The notes under the pieces: model-generated | Seen by the model: only the letters and a program-made list of their open reading frames with translations | Databases searched by the model: none | What the model was told of the DNA's origin: nothing | Translations under genes and position numbers: made by a program | Part shown: one piece after another, positions 1,005 to 4,333 of the stretch | How positions within the stretch are numbered: the first letter of the stretch is position 1 | Layout: each line of letters starts with the position of its first letter | Virus record (IMG/VR): IMGVR_UViG_2609460221_000007 | Coordinates: 1 to 17,058 of that record | Length of the DNA: 17,058 nucleotides | Origin: a virus | Lineage: Duplodnaviria > Heunggongvirae > Uroviricota > Caudoviricetes | Reading direction: 5' to 3' (one strand)

Positions 1005-1462
1005 GAGAGGTTAACTATGAGGCGCTTCGTGAGGCAGCACAAAACTATCAGTCGACGCTGGCGTGGTATCAGGCTATCCCGGACAGNCCAAATGCTGAAC
1101 GGGATTGTGATGCGGCTCTTGCTGCGTTTAAGCGTCACATCCGTCATCGGGAAGCGGATATTATCGCTGATTTGCTGGATGGACTGGAAGAAGCAAAATC
1201 ACAACTCAACGAGCAGCGTGAGTATTACGAAGGCGTTATCTCTGATGGGAGTAAGCGTATTGCTGAACTGGAAGCGCGGGAAGTTCAATTACCGACTCGC
1301 TACGACCTTCGATATGGACACCCGATAAATGCAGATGAGCGACATGTCATGATACCTAAAGAAAATGGCAGTTGGCTTTACCTGATTGACCTAGAACACG
1401 CATTACGCGTCGCTGGCATTCGCATCAAAGGAGAGGAGCATGGAAATAAAACCAGAGGATGA
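1001..1462 (+). CDS. hypothetical protein (153 aa)
   Basis: ATG 1001 overlaps the upstream stop (ATGA); RBS AGGAGGTGG at 987-996. One ambiguous codon (n at 1087). Confidence 0.6.
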   Translation: MREVNYEALREAAQNYQSTLAWYQAIPDXPNAERDCDAALAAFKRHIRHREADIIADLLDGLEEAKSQLNEQREYYEGVISDGSKRIAELEAREVQLPTRYDLRYGHPINADERHVMIPKENGSWLYLIDLEHALRVAGIRIKGEEHGNKTRG

Positions 1463-1796: not shown

Positions 1797-1891
1797 TTAA
1801 ATTTAGCACTGTTAAAAATTTTATCCTTAACCGGAGGGATTTCTGCACCCTCAGAACATCAGGAGGCCGCCCGAAAGGGCGGTAATGAAAA

Positions 1892-2299
1892 ATGACTGAA
1901 TTAACAAAAGAGCAATTAATCGAAGAAGCCAAATTAAAAATAGCGATTGCGAAATGCCACACGAATTCAGGGATGGCACGGGTAGAGGGTGAGTTATTCA
2001 AAATTGCACTGGCATCGCTAGAAGCGGAACCGATAGCGTGGAAATGCGGCGAAAACATAATCCTGTTTAATCCTGACACAGTTGAAGCATACGCAAAACG
2101 TGCGGAGATATCACCTAAACCACTATTCGCAGCTCCACCTGTGCCGGTTGTGTCTGAAGGACTGGTTAAAGCCGTGCGCTTCTATGAAAAGGTTAAGCGT
2201 GAAAATCCGCCAGTCGAAACCGGAGCATGGAAAGACGCTGTTGACTGGGTGCTCAAAGAGGCCTGCCAGGTTGTAAACACTGGCATCAAAGGAGACTGA
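1892..2299 (+). CDS. hypothetical protein (135 aa); shares an 'EP(I/V)A(W/Y)…AAPPVPVVSE' region with the 328-aa protein at 2663-3649
   Basis: ATG 1892. An AGGAGG (1861-1866) is separated from the start by a GC hairpin (1867-1882). Stop 2297-2299 lies 1 nt before the next ATG. Confidence 0.6.
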   Translation: MTELTKEQLIEEAKLKIAIAKCHTNSGMARVEGELFKIALASLEAEPIAWKCGENIILFNPDTVEAYAKRAEISPKPLFAAPPVPVVSEGLVKAVRFYEKVKRENPPVETGAWKDAVDWVLKEACQVVNTGIKGD

Positions 2300-2300
2300 T

Positions 2301-2666
2301 ATGGCACTGACGAAAAAACAACGTGCAGAATTGCGCATGAAGTTTGGCGGTCGCTGTGCTTATTGCGGCTGTGAACTTGGCGAAAAGTGGCATGCAGACC
2401 ATGTAAAACCGGTCATTCGTTTTAATGGAAATATGCTTCACCAGGAACGTGACGATATATCCAACATGGTTCCGGCATGCCACCCATGCAATCTGCACAA
2501 GCATTGCAGTAGCCTGGAAGACTATCGGCGAATTATCAGTGATGGTCGTCGTGAATTCCTTGCGTCCGGGAAAGGCAAAGCGCTGGTTCGTATGGGATTG
2601 GTTGAAATGAAATCTGACCCGGTTGTGTTCTGGTTTGAAAAATATCAAGAAGGGGCTACAGCATGA
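2301..2666 (+). CDS. HNH endonuclease
   Basis: Canonical HNH motif directly visible in translation: C-A-Y-C-G…H-A-D-H-V-K-P…N-M-V-P-A-C-H-P-C-N-L-H-K. RBS AAAGGAGA (2288-2295). Confidence 0.8.
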   Translation: MALTKKQRAELRMKFGGRCAYCGCELGEKWHADHVKPVIRFNGNMLHQERDDISNMVPACHPCNLHKHCSSLEDYRRIISDGRREFLASGKGKALVRMGLVEMKSDPVVFWFEKYQEGATA

Positions 2667-3649
2667 CCACTATTACCAATAAGAAACAGTATCCCAGCGA
2701 GCAATATCTTAATGAGCTTATCACCAACATAGAGTTTGCTGCAAGGGCACCAGTTGAAGTCGTGAGCGCAATGGCAGCAGAGCTACAGAAGCGGCGCGAA
2801 GCTGATAGCGCAGAACCAGTTGCTTATATTTTCAAACATCCGGCCGGGAAATTATTCTGGGCTTTAACGGATGAAAGCAATAAAGAGCAAGCGGACGTTA
2901 TTCCTGTTTATGCCGCCCCTCCAGTGCCAGTAGTATCTGAAGAAAAACCAATGCCTAACCCTCTTAAAATGTACGCGGTCGATGATGTTGCCGCTATTGC
3001 AGAGGTGAGAGGCTGGAATGCCTACCGCGCCGCCATGCTTCAGAGTCAGGGGGAAGGCAACCCTCATGTAACCCCGGCTCGCCTGCCTGGTGGTTTCACC
3101 ATTGAGGATGCGAAGGTGTTACATGAAGACCTTGTACGTAGCCACATAAGCCAGGCTTTAAGTGGCGAAAAGATGAAAAAGAAAGATCGCGATGCTGATT
3201 TGCGCTGGATTCATGGCGTAATAGTTCAGGCCGCGTGGTTTGTAAAGGCATCACTGGAGCAGAATGCACTATCGGGCAACTCTCCGGTAATTCCTGGTGA
3301 GGTGTTGTCCGCAATCCGGGAGGTTGCCAGGATTCGCGCCGATTTCGATGATTTTGACGGTGACAGGCGAGGTATCGGTGATTGTCTGGATGAGGCCGAG
3401 CAAGAGCTTATCGTTACCATTAACAAATATGCCAGTCAGTTGGCAGTAGAGCCGGTAGTACCTGATGACGTTCTGGAACAGACAGTAGCGTCGCCAGCGC
3501 TAGGTAACCAGGTTAGCGAATTAACAATGTGGGTTAAACGACTGGTCAGTCAACTGAAAAAAGCTCAGCCGGACTGCAAATTACCGGAGAAGGCGATGGA
3601 TTACCTGAAACGAAATGGACTGATAAGCGTGGAGGATGTTTTACGATGA
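2663..3649 (+). CDS. hypothetical protein (328 aa); N-terminal region paralogous to the 1892-2299 product
   Basis: ATG 2663 overlaps the HNH stop (ATGA-type coupling). Long ORF with phage-like codon usage; contains the 'YAAPPVPVVSE' motif. Confidence 0.65.
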   Translation: MTTITNKKQYPSEQYLNELITNIEFAARAPVEVVSAMAAELQKRREADSAEPVAYIFKHPAGKLFWALTDESNKEQADVIPVYAAPPVPVVSEEKPMPNPLKMYAVDDVAAIAEVRGWNAYRAAMLQSQGEGNPHVTPARLPGGFTIEDAKVLHEDLVRSHISQALSGEKMKKKDRDADLRWIHGVIVQAAWFVKASLEQNALSGNSPVIPGEVLSAIREVARIRADFDDFDGDRRGIGDCLDEAEQELIVTINKYASQLAVEPVVPDDVLEQTVASPALGNQVSELTMWVKRLVSQLKKAQPDCKLPEKAMDYLKRNGLISVEDVLR

Positions 3650-4032: not shown

Positions 4033-4151
4033 AACTGCGGGTGCTTGAGGCTATCTGTCTCAGGCATGAACACCAAAAGGCAGATAGAGAAAAGCCCCAG
4101 TTAACATTACGCGTCCTGCAAGACGCTTAACATTAATCTGAGGCCATATCT

Positions 4152-4211
4152 ATGCGACACATAGAGATTAGCCTCTTACGGACCGAAAGGTCAAGGAGAA
4201 GCAGGCTATGA
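4152..4211 (+). CDS. mok-like leader ORF translationally coupled to hok
   Basis: ATG 4152; 19 codons; stop TGA 4209-4211 overlaps the hok ATG (4208-4210). This is the arrangement expected for hok/mok loci. Confidence 0.3.
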   Translation: MRHIEISLLRTERSRRSRL

Positions 4212-4333
4212 AGCAGCAAAAGGCGATGTTAATCGNCCTGATCGTCATCTGTTTAACCGTCATAGTGACGGCACTGGTAACGAGGAAAGACCTCTGCGAG
4301 GTACGAATCCGAACTGGCAGACGGAGGCTCTGA
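4208..4333 (+). CDS. hok: Hok/Gef-family type I toxin (HokD/RelF-like)
   Basis: RBS AGGAGA (4193-4198); translation MKQQKAMLI(x)LIVICLTVIVTALVTRKDLCEVRIRTG… matches the Hok/Gef transmembrane core as recalled. The C-terminal tail as written (…RRRL*) differs from recalled homologues and may reflect a 1-nt indel or sequence error. Confidence 0.75.
   Translation: MKQQKAMLIXLIVICLTVIVTALVTRKDLCEVRIRTGRRRL

Follow-up and report, generated by a model that had tools for sequence, protein, structure and literature searches.

A portable Shine-Dalgarno–hairpin–spacer cassette at mosaic junctions of lambdoid phages is a candidate split ribosome binding site

How could a ribosome find the start codon of a gene whose Shine-Dalgarno (SD) sequence is separated from it by a stable hairpin? 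The question is raised by the open reading frame 1892-2299 in the window, the 17,058-nucleotide stretch of viral DNA that was analysed here. This window derives from a lambdoid (Qin/Rac-like) prophage of E. coli. Its early genes, all on the + strand, comprise DUF977, DUF4406, an Ead/Ea22-like gene, a zinc-ribbon ORF, ORF 1892-2299, an HNH endonuclease and a 328-aa ORF, and are followed by a hok/sok module and then by late genes. E. coli 7/2 contains a near-identical annotated arrangement, with replication genes on its upstream side and hokD and rem on its downstream side. The hok/sok module is a type I toxin-antitoxin system with an Rfam sok match of 106.7 bits at 4039-4210 and a Hok-like ORF at 4208-4333 (MKQQKAMLI...). 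Ambiguous bases at about 1090, in ORF 1001-1462, and at about 4238, in ORF 4208-4333, give X in the translations. ORF 1892-2299 and ORF 2663-3649 have a common AAPPVPVVSE segment and matches to PHROGs 660, 60 and 5117, a sign that these adjacent genes share domains in mosaic fashion.

Direct reading of the + strand places the SD sequence AGGAGG at 1861-1866, flush with the 5' foot of a hairpin at 1867-1882. The stem of the hairpin is formed by CCGCCC (1867-1872) and GGGCGG (1877-1882) and is closed by a GAAA tetraloop of the GNRA type (1873-1876). The 9-nt A/U-rich spacer UAAUGAAAA (1883-1891) connects the hairpin to the ATG at 1892-1894. The linear distance from G1866 to A1892 is 25 nt, which exceeds the functional limit of about 13-15 nt, and it becomes 9 nt, within the 5-11 nt range, if the 16-nt hairpin is looped out. 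This arrangement of motifs and the shortening of the spacing from about 25 to about 9 nt had been proposed in the original prediction, and both were borne out by the measured positions. It had also named a different start codon with its own ribosome binding site as grounds for abandoning the idea, and a search for one was negative. The TGA at 1886-1888 closes the upstream frame, so ATG 1892 is the first and only possible in-frame start, and the spacer contains neither an SD-like motif nor an alternative SD at a canonical distance from ATG 1892. The PGAP/RefSeq start is identical in the E. coli 7/2 homologue WP_000137948.1, and the N-terminus MTELTKEQLIE is kept among homologues, including those with an ordinary SD. 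The gene encodes 135 residues and matches PHROG 660 with an E-value of 9.5e-51.

Close to the start, the 3' arm of the stem (GGGCGG) is the one remaining SD-like sequence. Its use as an SD was considered and rejected, since the duplex would yield -7.8 kcal/mol but melting of the stem costs 12.4 kcal/mol. The duplex of AGGAGG with the 16S tail ACCUCCUUA has a predicted energy of -10.3 kcal/mol, about as strong as the best SD duplex of the neighbouring genes (-11.6 kcal/mol) and stronger than the others (-8.7 and -7.1 kcal/mol). Elsewhere in the operon, neighbouring genes start 7-8 nt from ordinary strong SDs, which makes gene 1892-2299 the exception. An out-of-frame mini-ORF (ATG AAA AAT GAC TGA, 1885-1899) starts 2 nt past the hairpin and ends just beyond ATG 1892. 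In the class of loci represented by L177, one A fewer puts the ATG of this mini-ORF in frame (MKMTELT...). Conservation of the mini-ORF does not extend to the other gene families that follow the same element.

Folding of the segment 1850-1900 yielded the 6-bp stem together with an optional closing pair G1866·U1883 below the hairpin, with an energy of -18.9 kcal/mol and a z-score of -4.4; none of 200 shuffled sequences was as stable as the native one. The isolated hairpin has a predicted energy of -12.4 kcal/mol as a 16-nt element, or -14.4 kcal/mol as an 18-nt element that includes G1866·U1883. In partition-function folding of 1790-1950, the pair probability of the stem does not fall below 0.99 between 20 and 60 °C, and 90 °C lowers it only to 0.87-0.94. 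The SD and the AUG are located outside the helix, which only G1866 can join through the G·U closing pair. Their predicted accessibilities, about 0.5 for the SD and about 0.6 for the AUG, hardly change between 30 and 42 °C. Folding thus produced the hairpin that had been predicted for 1850-1900, whereas the accompanying idea that translation might depend on temperature finds no support, given the predicted uniformly paired stem, the position of the SD outside it and the flat predicted accessibility. The predicted behaviour is opposite to that of a thermometer: like the hairpin of T4 gene 38, this one would be closed at all times.

The hairpin is not confined to the gene at 1892-2299. When the region was compared by BLAST with phage genomes, many matches ended at query position 111, which is window position 1890, two bases before the ATG, and the matching loci carried TCAGGAGG-CCGCCC-GAAA-GGGCGG-UA ahead of different genes. 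The exact 22-mer is present in at least 119 viral contigs in a scan of IMG/VR, and a 36-nt query matches 2149 of 5426 complete E. coli genomes (about 40%). A single genome can contain the cassette at as many as five sites, and both early operons (the nin-like and ea regions) harbour copies. E. coli 7/2 and an O157:H7 strain are among the carriers; the cassette is absent from the Rac and Qin prophages of E. coli K-12, both of which were fetched. In the window, its long form is the conserved intergenic linker between the stop of ORF 1440-1796 and ATG 1892 (1797-1891, + strand). Most copies among the fetched loci share this linker of about 95 nt, whose neighbours include at least five different genes upstream and at least six unrelated families downstream; as a rule, homology ends at the start codon or just before it. 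A short conserved intergenic sequence with non-homologous genes on both sides is what characterizes a lambdoid mosaic linker, and such a sequence was found here. The distribution is clearly non-random, and sequence comparison identifies the cassette as a portable intergenic linker at lambdoid mosaic junctions and not a one-gene feature, an aspect that the original prediction had overlooked.

The distance between the 3' foot of the hairpin and the start codon varies little among the downstream families. It is 7 nt in DUF7167 (MRKFKIIIETG, 60 aa), 6 nt in DUF4014 (MTTLFRKEYPR and variants beginning MTTL, MVTL or MKHY, 72 aa), 8-9 nt in the family of the window's gene (MTELTKEQ or MAELTK, of various sizes and with some GTG-start alleles), 9 nt in the MQEIKENIRQ family (158-196 aa) and 8 nt in the MLTLKHF family (43 aa). 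The gap of these five families, out of six, is A/U-rich and has no SD-like motif, so they have no SD besides the AGGAGG across the hairpin. In the sixth family (MEIT/MGITKERLLE, about 173 aa), the gap is 11 nt and includes a separate GGAG at 6 nt from the ATG, which implies that the cassette can be retained by genes that do not require it as an SD. A short form of the cassette, GATTAATGTC-AGGAGG-hairpin, begins only 4 nt after a stop codon and is the only candidate ribosome binding site of three gene families. The existence of the short form reduces the minimal shared unit to the SD, the hairpin and UA. When the short form was cofolded with the 16S tail, the SD:anti-SD duplex directly adjoined the intact hairpin.

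A pattern scan of 1.87 Mb of fetched lambdoid DNA (SD, stem with a 4-nt loop, 3-10 nt, ORF with ATG) returned the cassette family and one unrelated match, and a protein-anchored contig scan yielded four loci only and added no cross-genus diversity. One exact match to the 22-mer (L043) was discarded because it is located inside the coding sequence of a P2-like terminase (gpM) and is unrelated. Three loci with the cassette at 90-100% identity are labelled as an Actinobacillus phage (L004, PP818812.1), a Segatella copri MAG (L132) and a Collinsella MAG (L133); these labels probably reflect host mislabelling or mis-binning. In other genomes, the ends of IS1 are inserted at three different points in or beside the hairpin, with the junctions ...GGCAGCATTACC/AGGGCGG and ...CATTACC/GCCGCCTGAAAGGGCGG. 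The loci are L130, L198 and L201 (near locus positions 1501, 566 and 801, respectively) and L010 (1089-1854), and Rac-SA53 has an annotated IS1 28 nt downstream. The hairpin region may be a local hot spot of IS1 insertion.

Alleles that lack the hairpin indicate what the cassette may stand in for. In homologues of the window's gene without it (L150, L162, L176, L179, L192, L207 and L212), the same ATG is preceded at 6-8 nt by a canonical SD, as in L162 (TAAGGAAAACTGAA-ATGACTGAATTAACC) and L192 (AAAGGAGAGTGAT-ATG), and hairpin-less DUF4014 alleles have AAAGGAGAGTGAT followed by ATG or GTG. In both families the hairpin-less alleles therefore have an ordinary SD, in the 5-8 nt range, and the same start, which suggests that these families normally rely on a strong SD and that the cassette replaces it. 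A second recurrent linker, CATCAAAGGAGAG(G/T)GA(T/GC)-ATG, precedes several genes of the window (1427-1439 and 2288-2300), and elsewhere the CATCAAAGGAGAG linker is the alternative, hairpin-less ribosome binding site of DUF4014 and PHROG 660 alleles (L192, L383 and L390).

The upstream part of the long cassette contains two further elements that could affect initiation. The bases UCCU at 1824-1827, invariant across the compared copies, pair with AGGA at 1861-1864 in both the RNAalifold consensus and the minimum free energy structure; according to these models, UCCU may be a weak partial anti-SD that could partly mask the SD. The SD-like GGAGGG at 1833-1838 pairs with CCCUC at 1848-1852 to form a small hairpin (1833-1852, + strand), in which it is half-buried, and its bases are also invariant. 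Its duplex with the 16S 3' tail has an energy of -10.0 to -12.3 kcal/mol, and when the full-length form is cofolded, the 16S tail favours GGAGGGAUU, further upstream, over AGGAGG 1861-1866. GGAGGG is located 54 nt from ATG 1892 and therefore cannot place that start codon; it may serve as a standby site or a decoy, or be a relic. At another locus (L005, 990-1110, phage Ro157c2YLVW), the GGAGG of the linker is the functional-looking SD of a different gene, AACCGGAGGTATATCTATG. This suggests that the long cassette originated when about 50 nt were inserted after an older SD, separating it from its start. A change in the small upstream hairpin that had appeared compensatory (GAGTG/CTCTC, L063) is actually a mismatch.

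The variation of the stem was evaluated in 93 distinct contexts, which were not selected for the presence of the hairpin and are not phylogenetically independent. The hairpin has an energy of -7 kcal/mol or lower in 85 of the contexts. The remaining eight have weakened stems (for example -2.6 kcal/mol in L138 and -4.6 kcal/mol in L145), and the ORFs downstream are apparently intact. The loop is GAAA in 85 contexts, and the other loops are GAGA and GGAA, which are still of the GNRA type, and GGCA, AAAA and UAAA. C-to-U changes that keep the pair as G·U occur 37 times, as opposed to ten occurrences of pair-breaking G-to-A changes; transversions number seven. This one-sided excess fits selection on pairing in the + strand RNA, and the excess of C-to-T over G-to-A could also be a strand-specific mutation bias. 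Among 40 distinct variants of low divergence, 93.8% of the cells are paired, compared with 93.9% in shuffles, with a single compensatory cell, and the covariation term of RNAalifold is about zero. The sole double change from G-C to A-U is CCACCC/GGGTGG in L231. The stem is conserved and not covarying, and recent recombination alone could account for its conservation.

[quoted passage not shown] We infer in vivo folding of the hairpin, use of AGGAGG as the actual SD, and a ribosome able to accommodate the folded element. The CCGCCC-GAAA-GGGCGG hairpin would be essentially always formed in the polycistronic early mRNA, with the strong SD AGGAGG at its 5' foot and the A/U spacer and AUG at its 3' foot. 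The 30S subunit would pair with the SD, leaving the hairpin looped out and possibly stacked on the SD:anti-SD helix. The start codon, now separated from the SD by an effective distance of 9 nt (in relatives, 6-9 nt), could then reach the P site. The SD, the hairpin and UA would be common to many unrelated genes because the unit sits at mosaic junctions, where the cassette would supply every newly arriving gene with a functional initiation site and, through its conserved sequence, a place for homologous exchange. On balance, sequence and predicted structure point to a T4 gene 38-type split ribosome binding site, borne on a portable lambdoid cassette, as the most probable identity of the region. 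The split SD of the original prediction thus retains the support of the anatomy, the T4 analogy, the spacing rule, the energetics and the SDs of hairpin-less alleles, and loses its proposed dependence on temperature.

The cassette could instead be a mere mosaic linker kept by recombination, in which the hairpin is a passenger and the gene is translated weakly, or independently of an SD, on an A/U-rich leader. Homology that breaks at or beside the start codon, the many different flanking genes on both sides, the lack of significant covariation, the copies with broken stems and the own SD of the MEIT/MGIT family are all consistent with this explanation, as is the concept of boundary sequences in lambdoid phages, as far as it is set out in PMC3029335. 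However, it leaves unexplained why five unrelated families start 6-9 nt from the foot of the hairpin without an SD of their own, and why their hairpin-less alleles, like the neighbouring genes, invariably start 5-8 nt from a strong SD. We consider a linker function without a role in initiation unlikely; serving as a linker and as a split ribosome binding site are not mutually exclusive. A role in mRNA stability or processing, either as a barrier to 3'-5' exonucleases that protects the upstream cistron or as a 5' stem of the downstream cistron after cleavage, is more doubtful still. A GC-rich hairpin with an extra-stable tetraloop, in an intergenic position of a long operon and without a U-tract, would suit such a role, and its presence before MEIT/MGIT genes with their own SD fits a function that does not depend on SD spacing. 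Nevertheless, a stability element would not have to adjoin an SD directly and lie 6-9 nt ahead of a start in one family after another, and no Rfam or REP-like match was found. It could also coexist with a split ribosome binding site.

In outline, the GNRA hairpin is similar to lambda boxB, with a small GC stem, a GNRA-type loop and a position in early lambdoid transcripts. Recognition by a protein would make it either a boxB-like RNA, bound by an N-type arginine-rich peptide or a translational repressor, or a DNA palindrome for a recombinase or for the nearby HNH endonuclease (2301-2666). An HNH endonuclease gene follows cassette-led genes both in the window and in phage ArgO145, and the cassette is located at recombination junctions. 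However, most copies of the cassette have no HNH gene nearby, and a role as a DNA palindrome is disfavoured because the common C-to-T changes hit only one arm, which destroys the DNA palindrome and leaves the RNA pairing in place. The loop has four nucleotides, in contrast to five in boxB, and the hairpin also departs from boxB in its position, adjoining an SD and a start codon, and in its multiple copies, up to five per genome and in both early operons. A complete nut site, boxA with boxB, was rejected on account of the tetraloop and of the upstream AT-rich segment, which varies between copies and contains no conserved boxA-like element at a nut-like distance. A protein-binding site is therefore very unlikely. 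An RNA thermometer or another conformational switch is even less probable. In ROSE and fourU thermometers, the SD or the AUG is hidden within weak and imperfect helices whose melting range is 30-42 °C. The structure has in common with them, and with SD-sequestering hairpins, only its location within the translation initiation region; its SD and AUG are outside a helix that is predicted to be stable to above 80 °C and is paired throughout 20-60 °C, and there is no Rfam thermometer match. The least credible function, which we regard as close to negligible, is that of an intrinsic transcription terminator or attenuator. The hairpin is GC-rich, as a terminator would be, but UAAUGAAAA follows the stem and no run of T or U is present after it on either strand. 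A scan of 1400-2400 for promoters and terminators found none, on either strand for terminators, and Rfam searches at gathering and permissive thresholds gave no match at the site.

The mechanism of a hairpin-split SD is already known from T4, and the lambdoid cassette adds a new example. If the split ribosome binding site works, it would be a second, independent and far more widespread natural case of a hairpin-bridged SD outside the T-even phages. It would bear on the expression of newly shuffled phage accessory genes and could serve as a compact, insulated natural ribosome binding site part. Gene finders and models of ribosome binding sites penalise spacings of 25 nt. We speculate, tentatively, that the SD, the GNRA hairpin and the spacer might together constitute a plug-and-play ribosome binding site, self-folding and insulated from its context, which doubles as a recombination linker for gene swaps. 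Any gene placed behind such a cassette would be expressed without an SD of its own, the mosaic evolution of these genomes would be tied directly to a structured initiation element, and the presence of the cassette in about 40% of complete E. coli genomes would be explained. If the split site fails, the cassette would simply be a conserved recombination linker of limited interest.

Short conserved 'boundary sequences' or linkers at the mosaic junctions of lambdoid phages were described by Susskind and Botstein (1978) and by Clark et al. (2001) for HK620, as cited in PMC3029335. The cassette resembles them as a short conserved intergenic sequence in early operons that is flanked by non-homologous genes. 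The papers found by our search, which did not extend to the original boundary-sequence papers, make no mention of a hairpin-split ribosome binding site within a linker, and the exact sequence string had no match in the papers searched. Searches that combined DUF4014, DUF7167 or Ea22 with a hairpin returned nothing on this element.

The closest known counterparts of the proposed split ribosome binding site are in phage T4. The split SD of gene 38 is credited to Gold and co-workers and to Nivinskas et al. (1999) in the account of a later review (PMC3014915). Hairpins shorten the spacing from 22 to 5 nt in gene 38 and from 27 to 11 nt in gene 25; they are needed for translation, and destabilising mutations cut initiation (PMC3014915). 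The gene 38 site, which we read from NC_000866 as UAAGGAG-AGGGGC-UUCG-GCCCUU-CUAAAU-AUG, folds at -16.7 kcal/mol. In both gene 38 and the lambdoid cassette, the SD is flush with a GC-rich stem that is capped by an extra-stable tetraloop and followed by a short A/U spacer. The linear distance is 22 nt in gene 38 and 25 nt here, the effective distance 5 and 9 nt, and the length of the hairpin about 17 and 16 nt, respectively, whereas the loop is UUCG in T4 and GAAA, a GNRA loop, here. The hairpin between the SD and the AUG of gene 25 is kept in close relatives and absent in distant ones, which parallels the hairpin-less alleles with ordinary SDs described here, but gene 25 differs in its stem and effective spacing and is not part of a mobile cassette. 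This site, at the junction of genes 26 and 25, is said to have been termed 'accommodated', reportedly in the work of Nivinskas in 1999 and of Malys and Nivinskas in 2009. The split SD of gene 38 was proven by mutation, whereas that of the cassette is predicted from sequence and folding. The gene 38 element belongs to one gene, in contrast to the lambdoid cassette, which precedes at least six unrelated genes and is present in up to five copies per genome.
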